A stretch of 60,354 bases of DNA. Origin: an uncultured Acidobacteriota bacterium (GTDB lineage: Bacteria > Acidobacteriota > Vicinamibacteria > Fen-336 > JAGNNV01). Shown here piece after piece: positions 13,415 to 54,317 of the stretch. The stretch covers positions 1-60,354 of the forward strand of contig CAYNHK010000004.1 of NCBI GenBank assembly GCA_964396875.1. The letters are read 5' to 3'. The translations under genes and the position numbers were made by a program. Position 1 is the stretch's first letter. Every line of letters begins with the position of its first letter. Under the pieces are notes generated by a model that did not search any database, was not told where the DNA came from, and saw only the letters and a program-made list of their open reading frames with translations.

Positions 13415-13427
13415 GGTAGGCGCGGGT

Positions 13428-14822: not shown

Positions 14823-14836
14823 GAGCGTGTGTGCTC

Positions 14837-17269: not shown

Positions 17270-17395
17270 GACGCTGTGCTTGCCTCTTCTTTCGTCGCCC
17301 AGCGTGCGTGGGCTTCGTGGGGCCAAAAGCGGTGGACCCATGGTGCGGGCAGTATAGGGGCCGGTTTCGCGCGGGGGGCTTTCGAGGCCCGCAGT

Positions 17396-27646: not shown

Positions 27647-27830
27647 CGCCAAATGGTAACCAGCCCGAAGAGGCGCACATAGACCCACTCGCTGGGGCGG
27701 CTCCAGGCCCACTTTCTTCGCACTTCCGACAAGCCGGCGAGGCCGTGCCGAATCGTTCTCAGTGGGTCGGTCTCAAACAGCGAAAGTGGGCCTTTCGTTC
27801 GGTTGGGGACCTCGGTACCTTCGCGACGCA

Positions 27831-36094: not shown

Positions 36095-37876
36095 TCAGGG
36101 ACTGAGACACAGACCCACGCGGTGGCCAAACCCCGTGCCTTCCGCCGCGAACCCCGCGCCGCTTCTCAAAACGCGCGAGGCCGGGGCCGGCATCGCGTCC
36201 CAGCCCAATCGCGTGGCGAGGCGGCGATGCGCGTCATCGTAGGTCAGGCTCAGCATCGTCGAACCTCGCTGGGAGTCACGGGCGGGCAGGCGGATGTTCA
36301 ATCGCCACTGGCCGTCAACCGTCGCGACATCGATCGTCTCCGGCCTGGAGCCGAAAACCGCGGAAAGATCGGCCGCGGGCCACTCGCGACGCCAGATGAG
36401 TCCCGAGCCCTTCGGATGTCGCGGGCAGCCGGTGACGCGCCTGTCGCCTCCACCCCAGATGAAGTGGGGAGACGCTGGGTCGCCGCCGCAGGCCGCAGTC
36501 CACAGGTCGGGGCCACCTGGTTTGGAAAGCACCCCCTGCAGCGCCTGGGCCCACTCGGCGTCTGTGAGATCGCCTGCCATTTCTTTTTCGTTCCTGGCCG
36601 CATCCGGTCGCAACCAGCGGGGCACCGGCCCCTCGCCCACAAACCATGCGCAATGGGTCGAATCGCAGACGTCGGCTTCCGGGTGACGCGCGCCGCGCTG
36701 GAGGTATCGCAGGGCCGCGGACCCAAGTTGCGTCCGCAGGACACCCGCGGTCGTCCCAAGTTCGGCCTTCAGAACACCATTCGCGTAGTCGCGCGCGCTC
36801 ATGGTCGCCACGAGACGAATGGGCCCTGCCTGATCCACGACCGCGATCGCCCCGCGAATACGCCTCTCGAACTCAGGATTCTCCGCGGTGATCCGCCACA
36901 GGCCCGCTGAGAAGCGATCTCCAGGCACGGCGTTTACGGAGCCGCCGGGGCCGATAAATCCGCGCGACGAATCGGCGGGACCCGTGCCGATGTTCTGAAG
37001 GCGGACTTCATCGAGCCGCAATTCGTCGAGCATTCGAACGAGCACAGGGTCTTCGAGACCGCGCTTCTTCTCGCGCGGCCTCACCCGTGACGAGGCGCCC
37101 GTGGGCACGGATCGTCGGCCCACGCCGGTTCGAATCTTCGCGATCTCGTCTCCCGCCCGGATGGCCGCTTCACGCCCGGTGCCGCGTCGAAGCAGCCCCA
37201 GAAACGCGAAGCCGCCATCATCAACGGCCATCACGAAACCCGAGGTCCGAAGGGGCGCGCCATCGAGGGCGGGCACGGTTCCGGTCTTGGCCATGAAGCC
37301 AAAGAGCCGAAGGCCGGATGCCGTTCCGAAAAACGCCGACTCCTTCATGCCCTCGATCAACTCTCGACGGACGTCTTCGCGGCTTGTCCAGGGAGAGCGA
37401 ACGAGTTCGGCGTAGCTCGCGAGCAGCCGCTCGGGCGCGATAGTCACGGCCGCGGGCCCCGGCAGACCGATGGCCTCGGCCTCGCTCATCTCGCCCGCCC
37501 AGGAAAAGCCCGCGTCGAGGAACGATTCCCTTCTCGCTCCCGCGGGAGTGTCGCGCGCGATCTGCAGGAAGTAGGAGTTGCACGACTCGCGGATTGCGCC
37601 GCGCAGGTCGAGAGAGCCGTGGCCGCCGGGGCGCCAGCAGCCCGAAGTCCTCGTGCACATGATCCGGGGCGTCGCTTCCCGCGCATGCGCGGAAGCCCAC
37701 GCTCGCATCAGGAAGGGCTTCTGGAGCGAACCCACGGCGAGGCGCGCTTCTTTGGGAGTCCCAACGATCTGAATCTGTCCACGATTGCGGACCCACGCAT
37801 CGAAGTCGGCGGCCGACAGGGGCCCGGCAGCAAGCGCGCTCAGTATCAGCGCGGCAATCGGGGCCCGGCGCGCCAA
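36095..37876 (-). CDS. Fusion protein: compact penicillin-binding/class-D-beta-lactamase-like domain + SpoIID/LytB-like domain
   Basis: Signal peptide MARRAPIAALILSALAAGPLSA. SxxK = SLQK (aa 50-53, nt 37718-37729), SxN = SCN (aa 98-100), KTG (aa 197-199). The C-terminal half carries SARDYANGVLKAELG...DVCDSTHCAWFVG, like the SpoIID signature. TTG start immediately follows the upstream TAG. Confidence 0.8.
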   Translation of the reverse strand: MARRAPIAALILSALAAGPLSAADFDAWVRNRGQIQIVGTPKEARLAVGSLQKPFLMRAWASAHAREATPRIMCTRTSGCWRPGGHGSLDLRGAIRESCNSYFLQIARDTPAGARRESFLDAGFSWAGEMSEAEAIGLPGPAAVTIAPERLLASYAELVRSPWTSREDVRRELIEGMKESAFFGTASGLRLFGFMAKTGTVPALDGAPLRTSGFVMAVDDGGFAFLGLLRRGTGREAAIRAGDEIAKIRTGVGRRSVPTGASSRVRPREKKRGLEDPVLVRMLDELRLDEVRLQNIGTGPADSSRGFIGPGGSVNAVPGDRFSAGLWRITAENPEFERRIRGAIAVVDQAGPIRLVATMSARDYANGVLKAELGTTAGVLRTQLGSAALRYLQRGARHPEADVCDSTHCAWFVGEGPVPRWLRPDAARNEKEMAGDLTDAEWAQALQGVLSKPGGPDLWTAACGGDPASPHFIWGGGDRRVTGCPRHPKGSGLIWRREWPAADLSAVFGSRPETIDVATVDGQWRLNIRLPARDSQRGSTMLSLTYDDAHRRLATRLGWDAMPAPASRVLRSGAGFAAEGTGFGHRVGLCLSP

Positions 37877-39505
37877 CTACTTCGCCGCGGGTGTGCCGGC
37901 AGGCGCGGGTGTGGGAGGCGGCGCAACCGCGCCGAAGACAATGCGCTCTTTGAAGGACGAGCCGGTCACGCGACGCTCCACCTCGAGTGTGCGCACCGAG
38001 GGCATCCAGCCAAGAAGGCCCAGAACCCGATCGGAGAGAGGTCTCACGTTGTCGGACGAGCGTGGACCTTCGATGCGCGCCCAGCGCTTCCCCTCTTCGC
38101 GCGCGGCCGCGAGATTGAGCTTCGCGAACCGAACCACCTCACTGCTCCACGAGACCGCGGGAGCGGAACGAAGTTCGGCGGCGCTCGGACCGAGCCAGAC
38201 GAAATCGCCCATGCGCCTCCAGGCGAGTACAGGCAGACCCGGCCCCATCAGGTATTGACGTGTTTCCCCCGTGGCCGAAGGCGGCGAAAGACGCGCGCCG
38301 CGGCGGTCAAGGGTTGCCTCGAGAAGCGCGCCGAGTTCCGCATCCTTCTCCTTGGGCCACGGAAGGGCAAGGAGACGCGCCTTCGAGCGGTTGACGAGGT
38401 AGCCGAAGCCTTCGACCGGCTGGGACGCGAGAAGCGCTACCCACGCGTCGAGTTCCGCGGCCTCGGTCACAAGCCCCCCGCCCGAAACCGCGGGCACTTC
38501 GACGTTGATCGCGTAACGGTCCTCAGCACTCGCCGCCCTGGACGCGGGAAGCGGTGCGACGGCCACCTGCGGGCGATCGCTCGGGACCGGCAATGGCTCG
38601 CTCACTCCTCGGCGCAGTTCGAGAAGGAACCGGGACGCGTCACCGATCCAGCCGCTCGCCACCGCGTCCTTCGCATCGAAGATCGCACCGCGTTTCGATG
38701 CCACGGCCGCCTCCCCCTCGCGCACCTCGACCAGCCGTCCAGACTCGAGACGAAGCGCGGCACTGAGTTTCCCGCGCGACTCGCCCGCCTCCGCGAGTGA
38801 TCCAAACAGGAAATCGCGCTTGAAATAGAGATCGTTCCGAAGCGCTTCGAGGTCGAGTTCGAGGCTCGCCAGCCCTTCGAGCTTCGGCGCGAAGCGCTCC
38901 CCCGCAGCCACGGCGCCGAGGGCGAGTTTCATGGCTCGTTCGGAAGTAGCGATGATCAGAAGTCCGGAGTCGCGCGCCCACGCCAGGCCCATGCGGGTTT
39001 CGCCGTCGGCGCCTTCATCGGCGGCGCCGGTGCGCACGAGGTGATACGTCTTGCCCTGATCGATTCGCGACGTGCCCGCCTCGAAGATATCGGGCAGCGC
39101 GGCAAGCGGAGTTTCGACCACGAGAACCATCTCCATGTGACCGATGTTGAGCACGGCCAGCGCCGCCGCCGTTGCCTGCAGGTCGAGGATCGTCTGGAAC
39201 GACAGCGCCGTCTCTCCGCGGAACCGCGACCACTGATCCTGGAGCTTCGCGCCCACCTGACTCTGGTTGAAACCCCGCGCGACACCGTCATCCTCGGGAA
39301 GGGTTCCGTGAAGAGCTTTCCGGAAACCGCCGCCGAGCGCGGCATCGAAGGCAGGCACGTCGGGGATCGAGAGGCGGATCATCGACGCGGGAAGAGGCAG
39401 TCCCTGCTCAGGCGTCGGTTGCGCCCAGGCAAGAGCTGCGATCAGGCTCAGACCAAACGTCAACGCGAGGGTAAAGCGCGGACGACGAGCGGGGATCATC
39501 ATCAT
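37877..39505 (-). CDS. Exported hypothetical protein, 542 aa, no recognised domain
   Basis: Signal peptide MMMIPARRPRFTLALTFGLSLIAALAWA, balanced composition, Pro/Ala-rich C-terminal tail. ATGA overlap with the upstream gene at 39502-39505. Confidence 0.65.
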   Translation of the reverse strand: MMMIPARRPRFTLALTFGLSLIAALAWAQPTPEQGLPLPASMIRLSIPDVPAFDAALGGGFRKALHGTLPEDDGVARGFNQSQVGAKLQDQWSRFRGETALSFQTILDLQATAAALAVLNIGHMEMVLVVETPLAALPDIFEAGTSRIDQGKTYHLVRTGAADEGADGETRMGLAWARDSGLLIIATSERAMKLALGAVAAGERFAPKLEGLASLELDLEALRNDLYFKRDFLFGSLAEAGESRGKLSAALRLESGRLVEVREGEAAVASKRGAIFDAKDAVASGWIGDASRFLLELRRGVSEPLPVPSDRPQVAVAPLPASRAASAEDRYAINVEVPAVSGGGLVTEAAELDAWVALLASQPVEGFGYLVNRSKARLLALPWPKEKDAELGALLEATLDRRGARLSPPSATGETRQYLMGPGLPVLAWRRMGDFVWLGPSAAELRSAPAVSWSSEVVRFAKLNLAAAREEGKRWARIEGPRSSDNVRPLSDRVLGLLGWMPSVRTLEVERRVTGSSFKERIVFGAVAPPPTPAPAGTPAAK

Positions 39506-42500
39506 CTGGCCACCTGCCGCGAAAGATCAGCCTGGACGATCTGCGAGATGAGACCAAAAGTGAGATCGCGGGGCCGATAGAGCAGGGAGCGACCACCGAC
39601 GACCCGGTGCGAAACCGTGGGCGGCTCGACCGTCGCGGAGGAAAGTTCGGCACGCAGGGCCCGAGCCTCCGACCATCTTCGATCGGCGAGAAGGTCGAGG
39701 GCGCGCCCGACTTCCGCACGGTCGCCATTGCCCGCGGCGATTCTCGCGATATCGGCGAGGGCCGCATCGATGTCGGAGGCCTTGAAACGCCGGCGGGTCA
39801 AATCCAGGGCCGCCGACTCCGCGGAGAGGAAGCCGGCCAACGTTCGCGCGGCTCGCGGCGAAGCCACGAGCGACCTCGCGGCGCGAAGGCGCAGGAACGT
39901 CTCGTCGCCGCCGACATCTATGAAACCCAGATCCTCCACATCGCGAAGTGCGCGCGCGGCGAGGAAGGCGAGCTGCGGAGCCATCGCGGTGGGACGCCGG
40001 AGCGCGGCTCGCGCGGAGAGGATGTCGAACGGGTGATCCCTGAGGCGCGCCTGAAGCGACGCGCCGATGGTCTCGGGGCTCTCGCGCCAGAAACGGAGGG
40101 CCTGTTTCCATGCGTCCGGACCGGCGCCGCCCGCATCGATCGACCGACGCCAGAAGTCGAAGGCGCGGATCTCCTCAGCGCGCGCGAAGAGAACCTTCTC
40201 CCGTGCGCCGGCCATGTAGACAGCAGCGTCCCGTCTGCGGCCGACGCGGTTCAACCAGTCGGCGCGCTTCTCCACCTCGGCGAACGCCGACCAGAAGGGC
40301 CGCGCCTGCGCGATCCATGGCCCCGCCAGTTCGGGTGCGTACCGAACGAGATGACTCACAACGTCCGCATGCTGGTAGCCGGCCACATCGCCGCGGCGAT
40401 AGGCCTTTCGCAGCCGTTCGCCAATCCCGGCCTTCGCGGAGGGGTCGGCGATCTCGAGACGCATTCCCCAGAACTCGAGGAGGTGCGGCTGGTCCTCGAT
40501 CGTCTGATCGAGGGCGGCCTGCACGTCGGCTTCGATCAGGCCGAGTTTCCGGGCGGCCACGAAAGGCTCTCGGAGCGTGCGAAGCCACAGGGTCCCGGGC
40601 CCGGGGTCCGCGGCATCCTCCGCATCTCCGCCGCTCCAGTCCGTCCGGACGCTTTCCACATCTCCCTCAGTGTCCAGTGTGTCGGCACCCGCTATCGCGG
40701 AGATGGGCCTGAACGTGAGAGCGGGCGGAGTTTGCATCGAGGTCAGCGCCGCTTTGAAGAGGGCCACCGCGAGGGCGTCCTCTCCTCGAGCGAGGCGGAC
40801 GCGGATCATCAGCACCCGTCGCGCGTCAGCGTCCCCAACCTCCAAAGGAATGGCATCGAGAGCGGCGGTGTCGGGAAGGCTGTCGATGGCAACGATCGCG
40901 CGGGTGCGATCGGCGGAGGGAACGGTCTCCGCCCACGAAGCGGCGACGGGCCAGAAGTCGCCGAGCCGAGCAAGACCCGCGTGTGGAAGCGGGGCGGATT
41001 CGGTGGCCCACAACTCGGCGAGCCAGACGCGAAGTTCGGCCGCTTCGAGCATGGCCGCCTTGTCGCCCCACCTCGCGCCAAGCGCCGCACGGAATCCAAC
41101 CATGTCTTCGGTCCGGAAGCGGCGACCTGCTTCGGCGCCGGCCGTGTCGTAGATCGAGGCGAGCAATGCGGGCAGGACCGGGACCGCGGGGTCAAGCAGG
41201 GACAGGGGCGCGGGCAGGCCGAGATCCTCCGCCATCGACGCATACGCGCGCAGCGTGTCCTCGTTCAGACGATTCTGATCCGCAACGAGGCGTCGCTTGA
41301 GATCGTCGACAGCCTCGGCCTTGCGTCCGGCATCCACGAGCAGGCGCAGACGGAAGCGCAGCAGTTCGGGATCGGTGGTGCGCAGGCCGAGACTCTCGAT
41401 CCGGGCCAGGGCCTCGGCGGGACCCTTGAGCGCCAGGGCCAGACGCGCGGTGAGAAGAGCCCGTTCGGTTTCGCCGCCTGATTCAGGCCACTCTGCGGGC
41501 ACGTCGATGGCGGATGGATCGTTGGCCCGATAACGCGCGTAGGCCTGAAGGGCGAACCAGGCGAGGCCGGGGCGTTCACCCCACAAAGCTCCGGGGAAAC
41601 GCAGGGTGTCGATGCCGCGGCCCGCCACGCGATCGTCACCGGTCTCGATCACGTTGCCGGTCACGTCCGTCCGCGGTTTGAACATCGGCCACGTGAACTT
41701 CGGATCCGCGCCGAGTATGTCCTTGAGGACACTCGGCCCGAGCAGCTTCGTCGCGAAGTCGTTTTGGGCAGTGAAAACGGCAGTGTCGCTCAGGAGCGCG
41801 CCCAGCGACAACGATGTCTCGTTGACCGTGTTGCGGCGACCGATCAGGACCGGATCCTCGAGATTCGCGGCGTTGGTCACCGGCCGCTCCCAGAACGACA
41901 ACCACGCGATGCGCGACTCCGGCTTCAGTTCGCTCAGCAGGAACGAGACCTCCCAACCGCGGGCGCCGATCGCGCGGAAACGCTCCCACACACGGCGATC
42001 CTCGAAGATCGCCGAGAGGCCCGCCATGAGTTCGGGCTCAGTTCGCAACCCGCGCGCGAACGTCTCCATCGCAGCCCTGGAATCAAGCCACGTTGTCCAT
42101 CCTTCGCGAGGGCTCTCGGCGGTGATGACCGAAGGGCCACGGGCGATACCGATCAGCGCGGTCAGCCGGGGGCCGAGGAACTTCGCGAGGTCGGAAGCGC
42201 GATCGAACCGCACGAGATGCGACGCCCAAAGCGCATCGAAGTCCGGACCGCGGACCCGATATTCGCTCCCGCTGCCGTCGGCCTTGTTCACACTCACGAG
42301 GACCTGATCGGCGGCCTCGTTCAGGAAATCGGCAGGCGTCTCCTGGGTCCACGGACCGCTCACTTGTCGCGCGAAGCGCTGAGCGATCCGATACCGGAGG
42401 GGAGCCTCGAGGCGCGACCGCTCGATGAAGCTCCACCACTTGTTGAGAAAGGCCTCATCCGCGCGGGACGAGGGGAAGGTCTTTTCGAGGAGCCAGTTCA

Positions 42501-45500
42501 GGACCTGCTCGCGATTCTCGATTCGGCCGTACTGACCGAGAACGTCGCCCGCGGATCCCAGTCGATCTGCGTTCTCGAGATCGACGTTGAGCAGCGGCAT
42601 GAAAGTGTCGTTGAGCAGAGCGAGTTGGAATGCCTCTTCGAAGGAGAGGCTCGAAGCCTCGACTTCTTCGGGCGAACCCTGAGGAGAGAGGAAGCGCCAG
42701 GCGAGGCGGGGCTGACCCTGACGCCACAACCTTCGCGCGGCATCCGCGGTGCGATTCCCCAGATCCTCCTCGGTGGGCTCGGTCTTCTCGAAGGCCTCAA
42801 GAGCCGCACGCTCCACCGCCACCGCCTTCACGAGATCTCCGCCTCGAATGTACAGCTCGCTTCGCCGCCCCGCGACGTAGGGATCGTCGGGCCGCTGAAC
42901 GTTCCAGCCCTCGAGGAAGTCGGCGGCTTCGACGAATCGGGCATCGCGCTCCATCAGTTCGACCGCTTCGTCCCAGAGCACCTGGCGCTCGGGCCGGATG
43001 CGGGCCGCGGTTTGAGCCATCTCGATACCGCCCGGGAGATTGTCGGTGGCGACCCTGAGTTCGCGCGCGGCCACCGCCCATCGCACGTCGCGCGGCGAGC
43101 GCTGGTGCTGCCGCTCGAAGAACGAGACGAGGGTCTCGGGCTGCCCCGACTTGCGCGCGGTTCGGGCGGCTTCCTTGAGCCAGTCGCGCTGGGTGCTGCG
43201 ATTGAGCGCCTCGATCCACGTCGAAACCGAGGTCGCGTAGACCTTCTCGACCGCAGCGGCCCGCGCCACCTCCGCGAAGACCTGGGCCCGGAGTTCGGGT
43301 CTGAACTTCGCGGCCTCCGTCGTCGCGAAGGCTACCGCGGCAAAGGAAGGGTCCTGCTGAAAACGAAGCCTCGCCTGGAGGGAGATGGCGCCCAGCCGCT
43401 CGTCGTCGGTGAGGGACGCCGTGTTCAGAAGCCGATCGAGGGCTTTGGAGGCCCGTGGGAGATCCTTCTCGCCGAGCGATTCCGAAATCAGCCGCGTGAG
43501 GAGAGGGACGAGGTGACCGGAGGCGGCACGCACGGTCGCATCTTCGAGCGCCTGCCTCGCCTCATCGGCGCGGCCGTTGCGTCGCAGAAACTGGACGCGA
43601 TCTTCGATGACGCCGAGGCTCCAGGGGTATTTCGCGATGAGTCCGCCCCACGATGCGCGGGCGGGCTCGAAACCGCGGGTCCTTTCTATGAAGGAGGCGC
43701 GGGCCACAAGAGCCTGGATCTTCGAAGCACTCTCCGGCATCCCATCGATTCGTCCGCCGAGGGTGACCCACAAGGCGTCCGCCTCGGCCTGACGGCCAGC
43801 ACTCGCGAGGCGTTGGGCCAGGTCGATTTCGAGGCGCAGACGCTCCTCGACCGTCGGCGCCAGCTCGGCCCGGCGGGCCACGATGCCCGTGAAGAAGCGA
43901 TCCCGCGCGTCGTTGGCGCCCCAGGCAGGGGACGAATACGCGTGAGCCGCACTTTCGAGGGCGCTCAGAAACCGGTCCGTGGTCGCCGTGGGCGTCATCG
44001 CCGCCGCGCGGGCCAAAAGCGCCTCCGCCACCTTCGCGATTCCCGCGTGTTCGTTGCCTCGCGCAGCGAGCCGCTTCGCCTCTCTTTCTTCTCGGCCCAC
44101 CGGATCGTTCGGCTGATCCATCGCGTCGATCCAGTCGTCCGCGTCCCAATCGAGGCCGGGCGTGGGGGTATGGATCGAGCCGAGTGGCCAGAACGCGAGC
44201 AATGTCTTCTCATCGTCGGCGTGGCCCGGCTTGAGCGATTCGATCGCGACGAGGACGCGGCTGAGCACGCGCTCCCGGCCCATCCACTGAGCGAGGCGTC
44301 GGAGCGAACGCTGGTCATTTTCAAAACCGGAGCAGTAGCAGTCGTCGCTCTCGCCTTCGGGCCGAACCGCATCGAGATACTCGCGGATCGCGCCATCGAT
44401 GTCCTTCACTTCCTCGCGGAGCACACCGGCCTCGAACGCCAGCATCGTCGGCCGATCGAGGGCCTTGCGCCCGGCCTCGATGGTGTCGAGCGCCTCCTTC
44501 ATATGGCCGTAGTCCCAGAGAAGCGTGGCGGTTTCGCGAATTCGCTCTTCCTGACGCGGGTCTCGATCGAGCAGGGCCTTCCAGATCGTGAGCGCCATCT
44601 CCGGTCGGCCCGTTTCCTGGTACAGCTCACCCAGTTCCGTGATCAGCGGATTCGGGTCGATCAACGCGGGGACCGCTCGGTCGACGACGGCCTTCGCCGG
44701 CGCTTCGTGGGAAAGGTCGAGGCCGGCGAGTGACCGGTGGATCTGCAGCGCCTGGCGTGCGGCCGGCTCGTCGCCGGGGTAGGCGGCGGAAAGCCGTGAG
44801 GCGGCGTCTGCCGCCTTCTCGAAGAGCGAAAGACGCGAATAACCCTCCACAAGAATGATGTCGTCCACCGGGGTCCGCGCGGCGGCGCGCTCGAGAGCGG
44901 CGAGCTTCGCTTCGATCGCGTTGTCCTTCATGAGACCGGCGAAGTACGCCTCGCGCACCGAAGGGTCGACCGCGAAGATCGCCCAGCGGCGCTCGGCGAG
45001 CAGGGAGTCCTCGACCACCGCGGCCTGTCGTGCGTTGGTGGCGCGTGCGCTCGACCGCGCCCACGCGGAGGCGGTGATCAAGCGGCCCTCGGCGGCGTGG
45101 AGGACGGCCGGACTGTGCGGGAAACGTTCGAGGGCCTTGAGCACAACCCAATCGCCCCAGGGAACGAGACGCGTGCGGGTCCCGACCCTCGGCTGTTCGG
45201 GGATCTCGAGGCGGATGCTGGTGTCCGAGGAGCGTTCGAACATCGCGGCGCCGCGGAACGTGGCGGCGATCCGTTCGGCCAGCGCGCGCAGTTCGATCTG
45301 CCGCTTCTGACGGGTGAGGACGCGGGCCAGGCGGTTCCACCACGAAGCGTCTTCGAACCGCGAAAGGGCGGCTTCATAGCGCGGGGCCAGTTCGTCGTCG
45401 AGATTCCATGCGTCGAGGCGCGACGCGAGCTGAAGCCACAAGGCCTCGGCGTTTGGGAGGCGATCCATTTCGCCGAGCAGAAGTCCTATGGAACTGCGGT

Positions 45501-47205
45501 GCGTCTTGTCGCGCTCCTCGAGCCGGCTGATCGCCTCGTCCAGAAGCGGCTGGTATCCACGCTGCCCCGCTTCCCGGCCGTCGTCGCCCTCGGCGAAATC
45601 ACCAGCGGAAAAACGTCGGACCGAGTCGCCGCCGTATTCAGCGATCGCGGGCTCGGAGCCATCTTCGGCAAGGCCGCGGAGTTGCGCCTTGTAGAGACGA
45701 ATCTCCTCGGCAAGCGTCCCCCGCGTCTGGCGCAGGGCGAGCAAGCCCAATCTCTGCGCACGCCGCCTGGCCATCGCGGACCCGGTGGCCTCGATCTCCT
45801 TGAGCAGGGCCAGCGCCTCTTTCCCCTCGCCGCGATCGACGTGGCGCTGCATGACATCCACCTTGAGATCGGGGATCTCCGGGTTGGTGGCGTTGCGTCT
45901 CGCGAGTTCGGCGAGCAGGGCCCGCGCGGCTCCGAACGTGCGCTCCGGTATCGACTCGGCTTCAAGCCGGCTCAGCGCCTCACCCCAGTCCTGACCGGTG
46001 AGAAGAAGAGACAAGCCGCCGGTCCAGAAGCCCGGCGTCGGATCCATCCGCGCCACCCAGCGATAGTCGGCGTCCGAGTAGTTTCCCCAGGCGAGGGGAC
46101 GGCCGCCCGCGCGCAAGGCGAGACGGATCAGTTCGGCGAGATCGGCTTCAGCGGCTTTGGGATCCGCAAACGTAGCCGCGGCGAGCCGCGCGCGGAACGC
46201 TTCGGGAACCGCGTCGATCTCGGAGTAGAGCGATGAGACCAGAGCCCAGCCCGCGCGATCGAGGTCTTTCTGGTACCGGCGATCGATCTGTTGGAGCAGA
46301 GCGAGGCATGCATCGCCCCGCTGCTGGCCTTTGAAATAGGTGAAGAGACGCGCGAGCGCAGGGACGTCGAAACGCGAGTTCAGGGTCTGACGCCACTCCT
46401 CCGGACGCGACTTGGCCGCCTGGTCGATCGCACTCACGTAAGCCCCGGCCAGAAGGCGTCCGCGGCGGGGATTGCGGTCAATCGCCGTCTCGAGATCGTT
46501 CAGAACCTCGGAGGCTCGAAGCTGCGCCACGCGAAGTCGGGCGCGAAGGACCAGCGCAGGTTCTTCCGGTGTGTTCTTGGGGAGATTCGCGAGGCCCTTG
46601 TCCGCTTCTTCGAGGTTGTCTCCAGAGATATCGTTGTCCACCCAGGTGTAGGCGGTGGCCCAATCGGTGGAGTTGAGTTCCAGGGCCGCGCGCTGCATCT
46701 CGCGCCGGTCACGAAGCGAGGGCTGCTGCCCCGCCCACTCGACGCGCAGGTTCGCGAGATCGCGTTGAGCCGCGCCTTTGAGGCCGGGGATGGCCTTGTC
46801 CGCGAATTCGAAAGCGCGACCGTGGGCGCCGTAAGACCACGCCCAGCGGGCGGCTTCTTCGAAACCCGCACCCGGCGCATCCGTGGCCGACGCAGACACG
46901 GCGGCAGCCCATCGCTCGATGGTGGCGAGCGCCTTCTCACGCTGACCAAGGTCCATCTGCGCCTGCGCGAGATGACGCAGAGCGTCCGTTTCGGTCCGGG
47001 CTTCGAGGAGTGTCGCGAGTTCAGCGGTGGGTGTCTTGTAGTGAACGCGATGGGAGTCGACCAGAGAGAAGCGCGTGGCGATCTCGTACAACCAGTCGAC
47101 CTCGGTGAGATCCTCCCAAGAGATCATTGGCTTCGGCGCGGCGCCGAGGAACACCGCGCCAGCCAGGCTCAAGGCGCCCACGCGAACGAGTACGCGCGGC
47201 TTCAC
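39502..47205 (-). CDS. Giant (2567 aa) exported all-alpha, TPR/HEAT-like helical protein, unknown function
   Basis: Uninterrupted 7.7-kb ORF. GTG start is preceded by GGAGG at 7-nt spacing and overlaps the upstream stop as GTGA. Signal peptide MKPRVLVRVGALSLAGAVFLGAAP. Ala/Leu/Arg/Glu-rich helical composition throughout, with no catalytic motif seen. Confidence 0.8.
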   Translation of the reverse strand: MKPRVLVRVGALSLAGAVFLGAAPKPMISWEDLTEVDWLYEIATRFSLVDSHRVHYKTPTAELATLLEARTETDALRHLAQAQMDLGQREKALATIERWAAAVSASATDAPGAGFEEAARWAWSYGAHGRAFEFADKAIPGLKGAAQRDLANLRVEWAGQQPSLRDRREMQRAALELNSTDWATAYTWVDNDISGDNLEEADKGLANLPKNTPEEPALVLRARLRVAQLRASEVLNDLETAIDRNPRRGRLLAGAYVSAIDQAAKSRPEEWRQTLNSRFDVPALARLFTYFKGQQRGDACLALLQQIDRRYQKDLDRAGWALVSSLYSEIDAVPEAFRARLAAATFADPKAAEADLAELIRLALRAGGRPLAWGNYSDADYRWVARMDPTPGFWTGGLSLLLTGQDWGEALSRLEAESIPERTFGAARALLAELARRNATNPEIPDLKVDVMQRHVDRGEGKEALALLKEIEATGSAMARRRAQRLGLLALRQTRGTLAEEIRLYKAQLRGLAEDGSEPAIAEYGGDSVRRFSAGDFAEGDDGREAGQRGYQPLLDEAISRLEERDKTHRSSIGLLLGEMDRLPNAEALWLQLASRLDAWNLDDELAPRYEAALSRFEDASWWNRLARVLTRQKRQIELRALAERIAATFRGAAMFERSSDTSIRLEIPEQPRVGTRTRLVPWGDWVVLKALERFPHSPAVLHAAEGRLITASAWARSSARATNARQAAVVEDSLLAERRWAIFAVDPSVREAYFAGLMKDNAIEAKLAALERAAARTPVDDIILVEGYSRLSLFEKAADAASRLSAAYPGDEPAARQALQIHRSLAGLDLSHEAPAKAVVDRAVPALIDPNPLITELGELYQETGRPEMALTIWKALLDRDPRQEERIRETATLLWDYGHMKEALDTIEAGRKALDRPTMLAFEAGVLREEVKDIDGAIREYLDAVRPEGESDDCYCSGFENDQRSLRRLAQWMGRERVLSRVLVAIESLKPGHADDEKTLLAFWPLGSIHTPTPGLDWDADDWIDAMDQPNDPVGREEREAKRLAARGNEHAGIAKVAEALLARAAAMTPTATTDRFLSALESAAHAYSSPAWGANDARDRFFTGIVARRAELAPTVEERLRLEIDLAQRLASAGRQAEADALWVTLGGRIDGMPESASKIQALVARASFIERTRGFEPARASWGGLIAKYPWSLGVIEDRVQFLRRNGRADEARQALEDATVRAASGHLVPLLTRLISESLGEKDLPRASKALDRLLNTASLTDDERLGAISLQARLRFQQDPSFAAVAFATTEAAKFRPELRAQVFAEVARAAAVEKVYATSVSTWIEALNRSTQRDWLKEAARTARKSGQPETLVSFFERQHQRSPRDVRWAVAARELRVATDNLPGGIEMAQTAARIRPERQVLWDEAVELMERDARFVEAADFLEGWNVQRPDDPYVAGRRSELYIRGGDLVKAVAVERAALEAFEKTEPTEEDLGNRTADAARRLWRQGQPRLAWRFLSPQGSPEEVEASSLSFEEAFQLALLNDTFMPLLNVDLENADRLGSAGDVLGQYGRIENREQVLNWLLEKTFPSSRADEAFLNKWWSFIERSRLEAPLRYRIAQRFARQVSGPWTQETPADFLNEAADQVLVSVNKADGSGSEYRVRGPDFDALWASHLVRFDRASDLAKFLGPRLTALIGIARGPSVITAESPREGWTTWLDSRAAMETFARGLRTEPELMAGLSAIFEDRRVWERFRAIGARGWEVSFLLSELKPESRIAWLSFWERPVTNAANLEDPVLIGRRNTVNETSLSLGALLSDTAVFTAQNDFATKLLGPSVLKDILGADPKFTWPMFKPRTDVTGNVIETGDDRVAGRGIDTLRFPGALWGERPGLAWFALQAYARYRANDPSAIDVPAEWPESGGETERALLTARLALALKGPAEALARIESLGLRTTDPELLRFRLRLLVDAGRKAEAVDDLKRRLVADQNRLNEDTLRAYASMAEDLGLPAPLSLLDPAVPVLPALLASIYDTAGAEAGRRFRTEDMVGFRAALGARWGDKAAMLEAAELRVWLAELWATESAPLPHAGLARLGDFWPVAASWAETVPSADRTRAIVAIDSLPDTAALDAIPLEVGDADARRVLMIRVRLARGEDALAVALFKAALTSMQTPPALTFRPISAIAGADTLDTEGDVESVRTDWSGGDAEDAADPGPGTLWLRTLREPFVAARKLGLIEADVQAALDQTIEDQPHLLEFWGMRLEIADPSAKAGIGERLRKAYRRGDVAGYQHADVVSHLVRYAPELAGPWIAQARPFWSAFAEVEKRADWLNRVGRRRDAAVYMAGAREKVLFARAEEIRAFDFWRRSIDAGGAGPDAWKQALRFWRESPETIGASLQARLRDHPFDILSARAALRRPTAMAPQLAFLAARALRDVEDLGFIDVGGDETFLRLRAARSLVASPRAARTLAGFLSAESAALDLTRRRFKASDIDAALADIARIAAGNGDRAEVGRALDLLADRRWSEARALRAELSSATVEPPTVSHRVVGGRSLLYRPRDLTFGLISQIVQADLSRQVAR

Positions 47206-49601
47206 CGGCGCACCTCCACCTTCGTCCGACCAAACCCCACGTTCTTGGCCAGATCGACGGCCTCGAAAACGACATCCTGCACTCCCGCCACGGAGGCGGG
47301 AAGCCGCACGCGGCCGGTGGAAGCGTTCGCGGCCTTGTCCCAGCGCAACGGCACCGGCGGCAGGTTGCCGACCCGAGCCGAGAGGAAGATGACGTCGTCA
47401 TCGGTGGACGCGGTCAGGACGATCTCATCGCCCACGCGCGCCAACTTCTGCACCTTCGGCGTCACCTGCGGGGCACGGCCATCGATCACGAAGGTTTTCG
47501 ACTCGGTCGCGGTGTAGCCACTTCGATCGCGCATCACGATCTGAACGCTGTAGCGCCCGTCCTTCAGCGACTCAGGAACCAGGAACCGTCCTTCAAAGAC
47601 ATTCGATTGGGGACGCTTCACGAGGGGCAGCTTCAAACCGAACGGGAAAAGAGCGGTCGCCATGACCGTGCCTTCATCACACTCGACGCGCAGCACAGGG
47701 TCACCGGGCTGGATACGTCGAGGGCGGAGGAGCGAGCGTGGCGCGGCAAGAAAGGCCGTGTAGGGAGTGACGAACTTGTAGCGGCGCGAGAGTTCGATGA
47801 TCTCGTCGACCCATTCGCGTTTCTCTCCCTCGGCTTCAATCCGACGGAGCAAATCATCGACCCGCGCGCGCGCCCAGCGTCTTGGAAGGTCGCGAGCCTC
47901 GAGGGCCTTCGCGGGCAGGGCGGCGGTGAGCGTGCTGGAATCGCGGGGCAGGATTCCCGAAGCAAGCGCGAAACGCACTTCGTTCGCAGGTCTTGAATAG
48001 CGGCCGATGAAACCGGACAGCGACTGAGCAGCAGGCGGCTGCACCAGCACGGGGTAGATATCCCTGAGGCCGGGATCGCCTGAGGTCACTCGGAGTGCGC
48101 CCTCGTTCAGTGCTGCGGACCTTGGCGCGGCCGACGCCCGGGCGGGGCCGAGGAGCCGGTCGAAGAAGAGGTCCGTCTCGGGCTCGGACGAGAGTGCGGT
48201 CACGACTCCCTCCGCGGCTCCACGCAACGCAGCGCCGACGTCAGGCGTCGCGACGCTGACATAAAGAGGCGTCCTCCTGCGCGCAGCATTGAGGTCGCTT
48301 GAGTTCGGCATCGCAACGCCATCAGTGAAAAGAACCAGCCGGCCCTTGTCTCCATCCCCGACGAGCTTTTGGGCCGCACGCAGGGCGTCGAGAATGTTGG
48401 TGCCCGGCGACAGCGCGCGATTGCGGAGCCGTTCGAGGGATGTGGTCTTCGCGAGATCGATGGCGTTCGCCATCGAAGGCGGCGCATCGACAGTGGAATC
48501 GAAAGGGACGAGGGCGAACTTGTCCGCGGGAGTCAGCGCGCCGAACAGCCGAACGAGGCGCTGATACGACATCTCGAGACCGGAAAAGCGATGCGACAAC
48601 GAAGTGTCGAAGAGCACGGCCACCGAAAGGGCGCCGCGTTTGGCCGATGTCGCCGGGTTGGCAGCGCCCGGCGTCGCGGGTGCGTTGACCGCAGGCGGAA
48701 GCACTTCCATCAGAAAGAAGCCGTCCTTCTCGAGGGGAATGTCTGCGGGCCGCTCCCAGGGGGCGAGGGCCAGGCCATCGGGCATCCGGCCGTCGGGATT
48801 GCGGAAGGCCGAGAGTTTGAGCGGCGTCTCATCGCGCAACTTGAAGCGAACGATCAGATCGCGATCGAGCTTCACGTTCGTGCCCTCGAAGGCAACACCG
48901 TCCGCCGAGGGCGTGAGAGGGAGGCCATTCGCGGTCGCTTCATGGACAAGTCCGTTCAGCCCGACCCGGATGCGAAGCGTGCGAGCCACGAGGGGCTCGC
49001 CGTCGATCGGCGCCAGGGCCATCCGGAACTCACCCTTGAGGCCAACGATGTTGACCTCCTGCTGAAACTGCAGTTCGAGCCGCTTGGTCGCCTTCGCGGG
49101 AATGGGAGCGACCTTCACCGAGAAGGGCGCGGACCCCGAGCGCGACGTCGGGGCCGGACCATCACCCGGCTCGCGGTCTTCCTCCTCGCCCTGCTGAAGA
49201 AGGCCGGGATCGATGCGTTGCGTGGTCAGCGCCTCGTAGATGGCCCGGGCCCGACGTTTCTCCAGAATCACGCCGGGAATGCGAACGAGACCATCCCACA
49301 CCGCGAAGTCGCCGATCGCCGCGGAAGGCGCAAGCGCGAAACGGTACGTGCCTTCCTGAATCTCGGCGGTGTGGTTCTCGAAGATCTGGCGCACGTTCAC
49401 GCGGGCGTAGCCGCGCGCGACAGACGCGTCGATCGTCATATCGCGCAGGGAGAGAACGGTCGCGTCCTGACGACCGGTGCTCGTGGGGACCAGGAGACCG
49501 GACTGGGCGCGCGCCGAACCGGCCGAAGCGATGAGCGCAGCGCCGAACAGCAGTCTTCCGACCTGCTGTTCTACGGCTGAACGTCGCGCTCGACCGACCA
49601 T
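47202..49601 (-). CDS. Exported VIT + von Willebrand factor A domain protein
   Basis: Signal peptide, then a VIT-like segment (VARGYARVNVRQIFENHTAEIQEGTYRFALAPSAAIGDFAVWDGLVRIPGVILEKRRARAIYE). The VWA domain has a complete MIDAS: DTSLS (aa 332-336, nt 48594-48608), GTN, FTDG. Beta-rich C-terminus. Confidence 0.85.
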   Translation of the reverse strand: MVGRARRSAVEQQVGRLLFGAALIASAGSARAQSGLLVPTSTGRQDATVLSLRDMTIDASVARGYARVNVRQIFENHTAEIQEGTYRFALAPSAAIGDFAVWDGLVRIPGVILEKRRARAIYEALTTQRIDPGLLQQGEEEDREPGDGPAPTSRSGSAPFSVKVAPIPAKATKRLELQFQQEVNIVGLKGEFRMALAPIDGEPLVARTLRIRVGLNGLVHEATANGLPLTPSADGVAFEGTNVKLDRDLIVRFKLRDETPLKLSAFRNPDGRMPDGLALAPWERPADIPLEKDGFFLMEVLPPAVNAPATPGAANPATSAKRGALSVAVLFDTSLSHRFSGLEMSYQRLVRLFGALTPADKFALVPFDSTVDAPPSMANAIDLAKTTSLERLRNRALSPGTNILDALRAAQKLVGDGDKGRLVLFTDGVAMPNSSDLNAARRRTPLYVSVATPDVGAALRGAAEGVVTALSSEPETDLFFDRLLGPARASAAPRSAALNEGALRVTSGDPGLRDIYPVLVQPPAAQSLSGFIGRYSRPANEVRFALASGILPRDSSTLTAALPAKALEARDLPRRWARARVDDLLRRIEAEGEKREWVDEIIELSRRYKFVTPYTAFLAAPRSLLRPRRIQPGDPVLRVECDEGTVMATALFPFGLKLPLVKRPQSNVFEGRFLVPESLKDGRYSVQIVMRDRSGYTATESKTFVIDGRAPQVTPKVQKLARVGDEIVLTASTDDDVIFLSARVGNLPPVPLRWDKAANASTGRVRLPASVAGVQDVVFEAVDLAKNVGFGRTKVEVRR

Positions 49602-51454
49602 CGTGTCAACCCCTCGTCCGTCCCGATGTAGAGAAAGCCGTCCTTCACGAAAAGCGCCGTCACGCGCGGCGACGGCAGCGATAGCTTAAGCCGTTCGAAC
49701 CGCGTTCCATCCATCGAAAGTCGGTAGAGACCCGTGCCGTCGGTTCCGGCGTAAACCCGACCGCTCGCGGACACCAGACAGCCGGTGTTGATCTTCAGAC
49801 CCTGGGTCTCAGCGAATGGTCGCCAGTCGCCAGGATCGGACATCGCGCCCACGCGCCGGGTGAGTCCGCCACCATAGGTGCCGATGAGAACACCGTCTTC
49901 CACAGGCAGGATCGCTGTGACCCACGGGTGAGGCAACCTGCCTTCTCCCGAAGCCACGCGCCATCGCACCTTCAGATCTTCGACGTAGCCGAGCCCCGAG
50001 GGAGTTCCTACGAGCAGACCCATCCCGACGGAAGCAAGGGCGGTGGCCTGATTTCCGGGAAGGCCGTGAAAGGCGGAGAGGAGCTTGCGCTCGGGCAGGA
50101 GCACACCTTCGCCGAAACCAATGGCGACGCCGCCGCGTGTCTGGGCGAGGGAGAACGCAGCTCCCGAGCCCTCGACCCGCATCACACGTGCCCCGTCGAA
50201 CCGGAAGGCGCCGCGCAGACTGGCGACATGGAGAGCGCCGCCGGCATCCAGCAGGCCATTCACGGCCCAGACCGCCGAGGCCGGATCGGGCAGAGATCGA
50301 AGCATCATGGGCTCTTCGGATCTGGCGAGAGCGCTGGCATCAGTCGATCGCGCCGCCGGGACAAGTTCGGCGAGACCGCCGTCGAAGAAGCCCGCGACGA
50401 TGCGCCCGCGATACTCGGTGAGGGCGCCGACATGAGCACTTCCAAAGCTCTCCTGCTGGCGTCGCCTCGAAGCCAATCGCCACGCGCCGTTCGCTCTCTC
50501 GACAAGGTCGTTCGAGGCATCCGCCATAAGTCGGTCCCCCACTGTGAAGACGCGTCTCACCTCAGCGGGAAGCCGCTCGACCTGAACGCGACCGGCGGCG
50601 TCGAAGCGCCGCACCGAGGTGTCGGGAGGATCGGATGTCGCGAAAAGCTGGTCGCCGAGAACCGCGATCGAACCCACGGCCGCGCCATTCGGCACGGCCC
50701 GCATCACCCCGTCCACATCCTCCGCGAAGAGACCGATGGGCGTGACCGCGTGGACTCGCCCATCGAAAACGGCGACGGCGTCGATCCAGGGCGTGTCGAG
50801 GCCCTCGATGCTTTTCGGCTTCGTTACACCTCCCTGAGTCACGAAAAGTCCCGTCTCCCCGCCGCTCAGCACGCGTCCGGCATCCGAGACCGCGATCGCA
50901 CGAATCGGAAACTGATGCAGCCGAGCCATCGTCCGCTCGGCGAAACCGATGCGGAACAGACCTTCCCGCGCGCCGATCCAGAGTTCGCCGGCAGGCGTCT
51001 CCGCCAGAGTTCGAACGTGCAGCGTCCCAAATCCGGTCCTGATCTCGGACCACGCGCCGTCCCGATAGACGAACAGGCCCTCCTGGCCCAGGCCCACCGC
51101 GAGGTCTCTCCGCCAGGCGGAGAGGGCGGTCGCCCGTCGAGTGGGCAGGGGCAGAGACATGTCGATAGGCGCGAGCCCGTTGTCGCTCGGATCGCGGGAT
51201 GTCTCCAGCCGCACGACGCCCGAAGCACCCGCCAGGTACAGCCCTTCCGGCAGTGCGACCACCGCCTCGACATCCTGGCCGCCCCAGAAAGGAAGCGGCG
51301 AACGCTCCGGCACGGGCACGAATTCGACGGGTTGCTCCCGGGCCGCAGGGGCCTCCAATGCCCTTTCCACACGCCGATTCAAGAAGAACCCGATAGCGGC
51401 CACGGACGTCAGGGCGATCGCGAATCCGATCCGCAAGAGTTTCCCGCGAGGCAT
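49571..51454 (-). CDS. Membrane-anchored beta-propeller protein (two-component-regulator-propeller/Reg_prop-like repeats), no output domain
   Basis: A single N-terminal TM (LLRIGFAIALTSVAAIGFFL) followed by repeated G.LW.G...GLF/GLY motifs (ELWIGAREGLFRI, LLVGTPSGLGYV, VLIGTYGGGLTR, FLYIGTDEGLTRW). The 3' end overlaps the next gene by 31 nt. Confidence 0.72.
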   Translation of the reverse strand: MPRGKLLRIGFAIALTSVAAIGFFLNRRVERALEAPAAREQPVEFVPVPERSPLPFWGGQDVEAVVALPEGLYLAGASGVVRLETSRDPSDNGLAPIDMSLPLPTRRATALSAWRRDLAVGLGQEGLFVYRDGAWSEIRTGFGTLHVRTLAETPAGELWIGAREGLFRIGFAERTMARLHQFPIRAIAVSDAGRVLSGGETGLFVTQGGVTKPKSIEGLDTPWIDAVAVFDGRVHAVTPIGLFAEDVDGVMRAVPNGAAVGSIAVLGDQLFATSDPPDTSVRRFDAAGRVQVERLPAEVRRVFTVGDRLMADASNDLVERANGAWRLASRRRQQESFGSAHVGALTEYRGRIVAGFFDGGLAELVPAARSTDASALARSEEPMMLRSLPDPASAVWAVNGLLDAGGALHVASLRGAFRFDGARVMRVEGSGAAFSLAQTRGGVAIGFGEGVLLPERKLLSAFHGLPGNQATALASVGMGLLVGTPSGLGYVEDLKVRWRVASGEGRLPHPWVTAILPVEDGVLIGTYGGGLTRRVGAMSDPGDWRPFAETQGLKINTGCLVSASGRVYAGTDGTGLYRLSMDGTRFERLKLSLPSPRVTALFVKDGFLYIGTDEGLTRWSVERDVQP

Positions 51455-53357: not shown

Positions 53358-54317
53358 ATGCCCGCGGTTCACATCGAAAACGCCACATTCGCCGTCACCG
53401 GAGGCTGCGGCTTCATCGGCGCGACCGTCGTCCGGCAGCTCCTCGACCAGGGGGCGGGGCGGATCGTGGTTCTCGACTCCCTCAAGGCCGGTCGGCGCGA
53501 GCGGCTTCCCGATGATGCTCGTCTCGTGGTCGTCGAAACCACGCTCGGGGATGTTCCCGTGGAAACGCTGGCCCGGCAATTCAAGGGCATCGACGGCGTC
53601 TTCCACCTGGCGGCGGAAAAACACCGGCCTTCCCTCGACTCTCCTCGCGAACTCGTCCTCACCAACGTGCTCGGAACGAACGATGTCATCGAAGCTGCCA
53701 GGGTCGCGGGAATTCACAAGCTCGTCTTCTCGTCGTCGCTCTACGCCTACGGCCGGATGTCGGGCGCCCCGATGGTCGAAACCGAGCCGTGCCATCCGCA
53801 CACCCTTTACGGCACTACCAAACTCGCGGGCGAGAACCTGGTCGAGGCCGCGTATCGCCGCGGTGACTTCGCCACGGTCTCCCTGCGCTACTTCTTCGTA
53901 TACGGGCCGAGGCAGTACGTGGGCACGGGTTACAAGAGTGTGGTGGTCTCGAACTTCGAACGGCTGCGGCGGAACGAACCTCCGATCATCCACGGCGATG
54001 GCGAACAGGCGCTTGACTACTCCCACGTGGACGACATCGCAAGAGCGACCATCCTCGCCATGTCGCGCGAAGCGAACGGCAAGGTTCTGAACGTGGGCTC
54101 GGGTCGGGCGCTCTCTGTGAATGAGCTGACCGCTGCCATGATGGAGGCGGCAGGCGCGCGATTCGAGCCGATCTTCGACGAGGCCGACAACACGGCGGGC
54201 AGCTGCCGGGTGGCGAACACGGGTCACGCCGAGAGCATGCTCGGTTTCCGCTCCCACATCCCCCTCGAAGAAGGCCTCAGATCCACATGGGAGTGGATCC
54301 GCACGCAGCCTTCGTGA
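53358..54317 (+). CDS. NAD-dependent sugar epimerase/dehydratase (extended SDR)
   Basis: Rossmann motif TGGCGFIG and catalytic YGTTK. 319 aa. Confidence 0.9.
   Translation: MPAVHIENATFAVTGGCGFIGATVVRQLLDQGAGRIVVLDSLKAGRRERLPDDARLVVVETTLGDVPVETLARQFKGIDGVFHLAAEKHRPSLDSPRELVLTNVLGTNDVIEAARVAGIHKLVFSSSLYAYGRMSGAPMVETEPCHPHTLYGTTKLAGENLVEAAYRRGDFATVSLRYFFVYGPRQYVGTGYKSVVVSNFERLRRNEPPIIHGDGEQALDYSHVDDIARATILAMSREANGKVLNVGSGRALSVNELTAAMMEAAGARFEPIFDEADNTAGSCRVANTGHAESMLGFRSHIPLEEGLRSTWEWIRTQPS

Follow-up and report, generated by a model that had tools for sequence, protein, structure and literature searches.

A predicted exported alpha-solenoid protein of 2567 residues encoded in a conserved gene cassette of Acidobacteriota

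Long superhelices of the tetratricopeptide repeat (TPR) type are known from eukaryotes and bacteria. TTC21B/IFT139, SKI3, Ctr9 and Naa15 form superhelices of hundreds to more than 1000 residues that hold partner proteins, and the exported TPR-type proteins PelB, BcsC, PgaA, AlgK, LpoA, NlpI, CpoB and PflB organize periplasmic enzymes or span the periplasm, with the TPR domains of PelB, BcsC, PgaA and AlgK guiding exopolysaccharide across it. Few bacteria are as abundant in soil as the Acidobacteriota, yet there has been hardly any work on their cell biology. A further system that bears on the present locus is the type II alpha-2-macroglobulin (A2M) operon, to which the protein YfaQ/MagE belongs (PMC5764988). 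Here we analyze a window of 60,354 nucleotides (the whole stretch of DNA studied; contig CAYNHK010000004.1 of an uncultured Acidobacteriota bacterium of the class Vicinamibacteria), which carries on its minus strand, at 39502-47205, a single uninterrupted open reading frame (ORF) of 2567 codons. We describe the giant protein that it encodes, which structural models portray as an exported alpha-solenoid, and the cassette of envelope genes to which it belongs, and we tentatively propose a scaffolding role for it.

Among five genes that lie on the same strand with overlapping or abutting starts and stops, the giant gene occupies third place, and no other feature tells more about it than this strictly conserved, translationally coupled cassette. 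A first-pass annotation made earlier from the DNA letters was silent on both the minus-strand location of the gene and its cassette. In order, the cassette encodes a propeller protein (gene 1), a protein with VIT and VWA domains (gene 2), the giant protein (gene 3), an exported protein of ~500 residues (gene 4) and usually a protein resembling penicillin-binding proteins (PBPs) and SpoIID (gene 5). The GTG start of the giant gene shares bases with the TGA stop of the preceding VIT+VWA gene (GTGA), and the ATG of gene 4 overlaps the stop of the giant gene (ATGA). By sequence, all five proteins have an N-terminal signal or membrane anchor. No Rfam families were found in or around the cassette, and a scan of the region for sigma-70 promoters and terminators gave scores no better than those of shuffled sequences.

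A locus scan covering one genome per species with two exact peptide patterns retrieved 72 loci, which is an undercount. Nearly all of these are labelled Acidobacteriota and come from three classes, Vicinamibacteria, Thermoanaerobaculia and Holophagae, the last with Holophaga and Geothrix among its members; a few bear another phylum label or none, such as L067, labelled as a Deltaproteobacteria metagenome-assembled genome (MAG). The cultured Mesoterricola silvestris, which has a closed genome, also carries the cassette (locus L001). The five-gene order and strand are the same in ~50 loci of the three classes, essentially all of those with enough flanking sequence. Gene 1 lies upstream of the giant gene with order and strand kept in all loci with enough flank, and gene 4 comes after the giant gene in every locus, the most distant included. 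Two divergent loci with 30-34% identity, L079 (10001-19511) and L080 (5848-18894; labelled UBA4820), retain the first four genes and lack the PBP/SpoIID gene within 10 kb, and in L079 an unrelated ORF of 345 residues occupies the gene 5 position. A third distant cassette context has all five genes. Since L079 and L080 keep four genes without an adjacent fifth, we conclude that the invariant core consists of four genes and that the fifth is a frequent addition. On these sequences, the cassette appears to be confined to the Vicinamibacteria / Holophagae / Thermoanaerobaculia (plus UBA4820) branch of Acidobacteriota. Genes beyond the cassette ends show no conservation across loci. In the window, a divergent ORF of 620 residues without a Pfam match (51483-53345, plus strand) begins 28 bp from gene 1 and is followed by an epimerase gene (53358-54317) and by a gene for a family 2 glycosyltransferase (GT2) whose C-terminal part is AMP-binding-like (54287-56512). 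The three genes are kept beside the cassette in Vicinamibacteria only.

The first-pass annotation had described one 7.7-kb ORF with a GTG start, a GGAGG Shine-Dalgarno sequence at 7-nt spacing and a signal peptide, and our reading of the sequence bears this description out. The start codon is at 47205-47203, and the sole hydrophobic segment of the protein comprises aa 4-24. In 26 of the 27 orthologues the N-terminus has the same layout, consisting of a K/R-rich start, 12-16 hydrophobic residues and then small residues, and a conserved mature start, (I/V)PWE(D/E)LTE, comes directly after the signal segment (26 of 27 aligned orthologues). As judged from these sequences, the N-terminus fits a cleavable Sec signal peptide.

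The DNA here has 67% GC and does contain long spurious ORFs. On the plus strand, opposite the giant gene, there are antisense ORFs at 41764-44733 (989 aa) and 39607-41481 (624 aa), which we regard as by-products of codon bias because their GC content at first and third codon positions (GC1/GC3, 0.80/0.70) mirrors the sense frame. The 989-residue example would favor the view that the giant ORF is itself an artefact, either a chance open frame or a fusion of separate genes, as would locus L011, where the VIT+VWA and giant ORFs seem to be joined at ~9900-10000 into one frame of 3248 residues. We rejected the L011 fusion, as a run of N (translated X) in the MAG scaffold makes a false ORF. For the giant ORF, the chance of meeting no stop over 2567 codons at this GC content is ~1e-26. 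Compared with a 91%-identical orthologue in locus L002, dN/dS is 0.117 overall and lies between 0.07 and 0.18 in every block of 320 codons, and the entire length is therefore under purifying selection. A homologue search with the giant protein returned 195 proteins, the best 120 of which are all full-length (2490-2607 aa) with 41-91% identity. An exhaustive phmmer search with the C-terminal 1200 residues over 1.8 billion cluster representatives found just 126 proteins, all of them orthologues of 2325-2678 aa or contig-end fragments. No split or frameshifted orthologue was seen among the matches examined, and the conserved length answers the concern, raised in the first-pass annotation, that the frame might be a fusion artefact. 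Taken together, the stop-codon statistics, the dN/dS of 0.12, more than 120 full-length orthologue clusters of conserved length and the confident structural models described below make an artefact extremely improbable; we consider that reading already refuted by these results, and the giant ORF is a genuine gene and not a fusion.

The protein is rich in Ala, Leu, Arg and Glu, as previously noted (A 16.2, L 11.8, R 11.0, E 7.9%), and contains 2.7% Trp. Neither tandem repeats nor catalytic or nucleotide-binding motifs had been seen in the first pass, and none emerged here. Tandem Repeats Finder (TRF) detected no DNA tandem repeats in the gene, self-BLAST of the protein gave no off-diagonal match at E<=10, and the best off-diagonal match in a profile self-alignment with hhalign was not significant (E=0.088); the sequence periodicity of TPRs was not found by any of the three. 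HExxH, P-loop, GxSxG and CxxC motifs are all absent. Scans against Pfam, NCBIfam and PADLOC gave nothing above curated thresholds, the best Pfam match being TPR_7 (22.4 bits; cut-off 27.9), with all others weaker. When the family profile was compared with the PDB, only designed consensus TPR proteins were matched (9gzg, E=4.6e-7; 5fzr; 5fzq; 2wqh). No family with a defined role, the kind of homology that would have given the protein a known function, was found in Pfam, NCBIfam, PADLOC or the PDB.

Structural modelling with AlphaFold2 (AF2) was performed on two halves separately (aa 30-1229 and aa 1368-2567) with alignments of 61 sequences. The N-terminal half was modelled with a mean predicted local distance difference test score (pLDDT) of 82.4, a predicted TM-score (pTM) of 0.64 and ~66 helices, and the C-terminal half with a mean pLDDT of 87.8, a pTM of 0.82 and ~73 helices. 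Both halves are essentially all-helical, with a beta content by DSSP of a few short hairpins only, and both have the stacked helical hairpins and solenoid architecture of the TPR class. Conserved short beta-hairpins occur near both termini, at aa 44-57 and 2533-2542. Helices continue to the end of the C-terminal half, which has just two short beta-hairpins, and a C-terminal beta-barrel porin domain is absent from the AF2 model and its DSSP assignment. Foldseek searches of the PDB with both halves returned only long TPR superhelices, namely TTC21B/IFT-A, SKI3, Ctr9 and Naa15 together with the Campylobacter jejuni flagellar periplasmic scaffold 9hmf_L (E=3.9e-6). The best E value was 6e-12 with a probability of 1.0, but TM-scores were 0.1-0.2 and identities 10-13%, and we read this model-based likeness as one of class, not family. 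No catalytic family or enzyme fold was matched by either sequence or structure search. The segment-wise models thus agree with the all-helical, TPR-like character suggested in the first-pass annotation, and their best explanation is an alpha-solenoid of roughly 150 helices composed of TPR-like hairpins that have probably diverged beyond repeat recognition. The idea in the first-pass annotation that the protein would be long enough to span or line the periplasm follows from its size and fold: some 70 hairpins could well exceed the width of the periplasm if they formed a regular superhelix. However, the pTM of 0.82 for the C-terminal half suggests a compact body and not a simple rod. A literature search found no description of the giant protein family or the cassette, and these proteins are labelled "hypothetical" wherever a name is given to them. 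A report on "giant" morphogenetic PBPs proved unrelated to the cassette.

Conservation runs along the entire giant protein and is densest in a few non-helical inserts. Within the insert at aa 367-401, residues R369, G374, D378, Y381, D388, T390, P391, G392, W394, T395 and G396 are invariant, and AF2 renders this segment (model residues 338-372) as non-helical with low pLDDT; a partner protein or a ligand may bind here. Another densely conserved non-helical insert is located at aa 1014-1038 (PGLDWDADDWIDAMDQPNDPVGR), and further ones at aa 649-682, 948-960 (with CxC) and 1832-1880. In the family alignment 28 Trp residues are invariant. Three short stretches carry a TPR signal, one listed in Table 1 and the others at aa ~60-135 and 1377-1487. 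Two regions are variable. The linker at aa 513-550 has gap-rich alignment columns without a consensus and is unstructured with low pLDDT in the AF2 model (model residues 484-521), and the loop at aa 2165-2197 has variable columns and a pLDDT below 50 at model residues 798-830.

Among the partner genes, gene 1 encodes a protein with a single hydrophobic segment, located at its N-terminus (anchor aa 5-27), that matches Pfam Reg_prop with E=1.5e-8. Its profile matches the sensor propellers of Bacteroides hybrid two-component systems (HTCS; 4a2l, E=4e-18; 3v9f; 3ott) and also PorZ (5m11, E=7e-5). The periplasmic sensor propellers of HTCS proteins and PorZ bind glycans. No cassette member is more conserved than gene 2, with 49-93% identity across classes and a mean column identity of 65%. 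It scores 61.4 bits for Pfam VIT (cut-off 26.5) and a borderline 25.9 bits for VWA_2 (cut-off 27), and its profile matches ITIH4 (E=4e-14), the VWA domain of ITIH1 (E=2e-8) and the VIT domain of PARP4. The predicted signal peptide of gene 4 ends ...ALAWA/QP. An assignment of gene 4 to UB2H was rejected as too weak, since only 3 of 27 family members matched, with E values of at least 0.004.

Gene 5 contains the motifs SxxK (S50, K53), SxN (S98-C99-N100) and KTG (K197-T198-G199), which are invariant or at least 90% conserved and have the order and spacing of the penicillin-binding/serine beta-lactamase-like superfamily. Its profile matches the class B PBP2/MrdA structure 8yjx in the PDB (E=4.6e-7). 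Pfam Transpeptidase matches 16 of the 20 family members (best E=2.4e-5), with the gene 5 product of the window itself under the cut-off (15 versus 22.1 bits). The C-terminal, SpoIID-like region has as invariants YxxGVLxAE (E372), H398-x5-C404-x3-H408-C409, C463-G-G and GHRVGLC, and E372 is the candidate for the SpoIID catalytic Glu. Pfam SpoIID (PF08486) matches 11 of 20 relatives, all below the gathering score (best E=3.3e-4), and the gene 5 profile matched no SpoIID sequence in the PDB; the region aligns to the part of E. coli YfaQ that scores 27 bits for SpoIID (cut-off 23). An hhalign comparison of the gene 5 and YfaQ families gave a probability of 96.1% and E=3.7e-9 over 322 columns, and from these profiles we read gene 5 as a remote homologue of YfaQ/MagE. 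A homologue search with the gene 5 profile gave orthologues only among the best 120 matches listed. From the homology between gene 5 and YfaQ it follows that the N-terminal, "DUF2300" region of YfaQ has a degenerate PBP fold, and E. coli YfaQ has degenerate forms of the three motifs (S60xxK63, S108-C-G and K195-T-W). YfaQ/MagE are thus predicted to descend from a cell-wall enzyme with PBP and SpoIID folds.

Table 1. Features of the giant gene and its cassette, in positions of the 60,354-nucleotide window.
Feature	Position	Strand	Description
Giant gene (gene 3)	39502..47205	minus	2567 aa, predicted exported alpha-solenoid, no family assignment
Shine-Dalgarno GGAGG	47213..47217	minus	7 nt before the GTG start, read directly from the sequence
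Predicted signal peptide of giant protein	47128..47205	minus	aa 1 to ~26, from hydrophobicity and orthologue layout
Cassette gene 1	49571..51454	minus	627 aa, transmembrane anchor and predicted Reg_prop-type periplasmic beta-propeller(s)
Cassette gene 2	47202..49601	minus	799 aa, signal peptide, VIT, VWA with DxSxS, highly conserved C-terminal region
Cassette gene 4	37877..39505	minus	542 aa, predicted exported protein without fold match
Cassette gene 5	36095..37876	minus	593 aa, exported peptidoglycan-type enzyme predicted by sequence, remote YfaQ/MagE homologue
Penicillin-binding/transpeptidase-like domain of gene 5	37127..37804	minus	aa ~25-250, three motifs
SpoIID-like domain of gene 5	36098..36829	minus	aa ~350-593, conserved residues and weak Pfam match
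Conserved non-helical insert	46003..46107	minus	aa 367-401, consensus GRPLAWGxYNDExYRWVARxDRTPGFWTGGLS
TPR-signal stretch	44494..44730	minus	aa 826-904, one of three short stretches
Variable acidic/Gly-rich disordered linker	45556..45669	minus	aa 513-550, alignment and AF2
Second variable acidic disordered loop	40615..40713	minus	aa 2165-2197, alignment and AF2

We propose that the giant protein is a periplasmic scaffold in a multi-protein complex acting on a glycan of the envelope, in all likelihood peptidoglycan, and we give this reading a little less than an even chance. The giant protein would be a Sec-exported, non-enzymatic, central part of the coupled envelope cassette that acts as a periplasmic assembly platform, with its long helical surface and few conserved non-helical inserts binding the three invariant partners, namely the inner-membrane-anchored propeller, the ITIH-like VIT+VWA protein and the ~500-residue gene 4 protein. 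In most lineages the platform would also position the gene 5 protein with its predicted PBP-type DD-peptidase and SpoIID-type glycan-strand-cleaving domains, and the complex might handle or remodel the glycan at set places or distances from the inner membrane. The gene with its export signal, fold and purifying selection, the cassette and its distribution, and the domains of the partners follow from the data above, whereas we infer complex formation, the scaffold role and the peptidoglycan substrate, all three, from the following observations. The giant protein combines the lack of an enzyme signature with the fold class of assembly platforms, and all conserved neighbors of its gene are exported. 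Judged by their nearest relatives, these neighbors comprise a membrane-anchored propeller that likely binds glycans, a binding module of adhesive or metal-dependent type and an enzyme of the cell wall.

Several points weigh against this proposal. The interaction and localization of the five proteins are read from their genes. The distal positions of the metal ion-dependent adhesion site (MIDAS) in the gene 2 VWA domain are, from the consensus, not uniformly conserved, and gene 4 gave no match in Pfam, NCBIfam, PADLOC or the PDB, even with a profile of 27 sequences. As gene 5 is missing beside the cassette in L079 and L080, the two most divergent loci examined, the core function must be independent of a cis-encoded gene 5. 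The conserved inserts could hide a catalytic or ligand site missed by searches with whole 1200-residue models, and the models, made for aa 30-1229 and 1368-2567 separately, describe the shape of each half and not that of the whole protein.

The same genes could form a polysaccharide or adhesion apparatus in which the giant protein guides an exopolysaccharide or adhesin across the periplasm, the VWA protein is adhesive and the propeller binds glycan. The TPR-like fold of the giant protein, an anchored propeller of the glycan-binding HTCS/PorZ type, the VIT+VWA protein encoded by gene 2 and the divergent GT2 and epimerase genes that adjoin the cassette in Vicinamibacteria would all suit such an apparatus. 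However, the giant protein is without a beta-barrel porin (DSSP assigns a few tiny hairpins), the cassette genes include no synthase, flippase or secretin, and the GT2 and epimerase neighbors are not conserved beyond Vicinamibacteria. Inspection by eye found a hydrophobic C-terminal sorting-type segment in none of the five cassette proteins, gene 5 is of peptidoglycan type, and we consider this apparatus unlikely. In type II A2M operons YfaQ/MagE is the component with SpoIID and DUF2300, and the homology of gene 5 to it points in another direction, that of a guard-and-repair system analogous to A2M in which the giant protein would shield against or trap incoming lytic proteins while the cell-wall enzyme repairs damage. 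Each system is a multi-gene operon with exported proteins around one very large protein, and ITIH-like and A2M-like proteins both occur, as is generally known, in metazoan plasma protease-inhibitor systems. Yet the giant protein is all-alpha and lacks macroglobulin, bait and thioester domains, solenoids are not known to have a means of trapping proteases, and the YfaQ-like gene is the dispensable member of the cassette. The cassette also has no counterpart of DUF2138 (YfaA/MagB), DUF1175 (YfaT/MagC) or YfaP_C, as profile-profile comparisons of genes 4, 2 and 1 with these families gave E=0.2-0.7. A guard-and-repair role is thus quite unlikely in our judgment. The narrower idea that the cassette is itself a divergent Mag/Yfa operon was rejected, as only the YfaQ-like gene is in common.

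It is also conceivable that the giant protein itself has enzymatic activity or binds a particular ligand or glycan, with its function residing in the conserved inserts and the solenoid serving as a mere framework. Invariant Asp, Arg, Trp, Gly and Pro residues are densely clustered in these inserts, which the models show as non-helical or with low confidence, and the family has its 28 invariant Trp and 2.7% Trp overall. Against this, no catalytic family was matched by sequence or fold and no classical motifs are present, Trp is also part of the TPR consensus, and conserved loops are equally expected at protein-protein interfaces, which leaves the enzyme or binder reading very unlikely. To return to the scaffold, a more specific version of it is that a ~280-kDa periplasmic solenoid tethered by the propeller serves as a ruler or track setting where the cell wall or another glycan is cut or remodelled. 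We hold this version to be unlikely; if true, it would be an envelope-organizing solution of one deep Acidobacteriota branch that has no counterpart in model bacteria.

The cassette amounts to ~15 kb under strong purifying selection, and to our knowledge the giant protein is among the largest exported non-repetitive helical proteins of bacteria. If it is an envelope scaffold, it would represent a new mode of organizing the periplasm and controlling cell-wall enzymes, and the giant protein and its 500-residue partner would each found a new protein family, two or more in all. As a cultured carrier with a closed genome is available in Mesoterricola silvestris, the hypothesis is testable by genetics.

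Elsewhere in the window, we noted on the minus strand a gene for a secretin with an N-terminal TPR motif (PilQ/GspD-like; 8067-9872), 30 kb away and with no link to the cassette seen. A row of three minus-strand genes at 11438-17341 encodes a 658-residue ankyrin-repeat protein with very strong Ank matches, a protein with DUF1552 (HXXSHH) and one with DUF1592/1588/1587/1585/1595 (PSD/PSCyt); a DUF1552 and PSD/PSCyt pair is typical of Planctomycetes. The plus-strand genes at 27762-30293 and 32751-35162 each specify a large MacB_PCD+FtsX permease that has no ATPase domain next to it, and an FG-GAP/TPR protein is encoded between them (30993-32747). Duplicated orphan MacB-type permeases are common in Acidobacteriota.

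Compared with described systems, the giant protein shares the superhelix of helical hairpins with the eukaryotic TPR scaffolds TTC21B/IFT139 of IFT-A, SKI3, Ctr9 and Naa15. It differs in that those proteins are eukaryotic and cytosolic or nuclear, whereas the giant protein is predicted to be exported and is twice as long. The Campylobacter motor scaffold retrieved by Foldseek (9hmf_L) is likewise of TPR type. Relative to PelB, BcsC, PgaA, AlgK, LpoA, NlpI, CpoB and PflB (of the Campylobacter motor) the giant protein is 2-10 times larger, and unlike the bacterial periplasmic TPR scaffolds it has neither a lipobox nor a beta-barrel porin or catalytic domain. It showed no detectable sequence homology to these scaffolds, and its partners differ, being a VIT+VWA protein, a propeller and the gene 4 protein.

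The partner proteins have described relatives of their own. Gene 2 has the VIT-then-VWA arrangement of the inter-alpha-trypsin inhibitor heavy chains ITIH1 and ITIH4 and contains DxSxS, but it is bacterial and predicted to be periplasmic, has a distinct, highly conserved C-terminal region without a match, and varies at the distal MIDAS. Gene 5 has the SxxK/SxN/KTG motifs of class B PBPs and similarity to PBP2/MrdA, but its PBP-like domain is minimal (~225 aa), with no pedestal domain and no membrane anchor. A tentative likeness to SpoIID lytic transglycosylases lies in its SpoIID-like region, where a Glu and a cluster of His and Cys residues are conserved, and it differs from PBPs and SpoIID alike in that both predicted activities appear to be fused in one soluble protein. 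The type II A2M operons, Mag of P. aeruginosa and yfaP-Q-S-T-A of E. coli, resemble the cassette in placing exported proteins around a giant one, and YfaQ/MagE and gene 5 share the architecture of a PBP-like N-terminal domain followed by a SpoIID-like domain. The SCG and KTW motifs of YfaQ are degenerate where gene 5 retains the canonical SCN and KTG, and the central macroglobulin of the Mag/Yfa systems (MG2, A2M_BRD, A2M) has no Pfam match in the all-alpha giant protein. Neither the fold class nor the concept of a TPR scaffold in the periplasm is novel, whereas the protein family, its size, its set of partners and the cassette are new.

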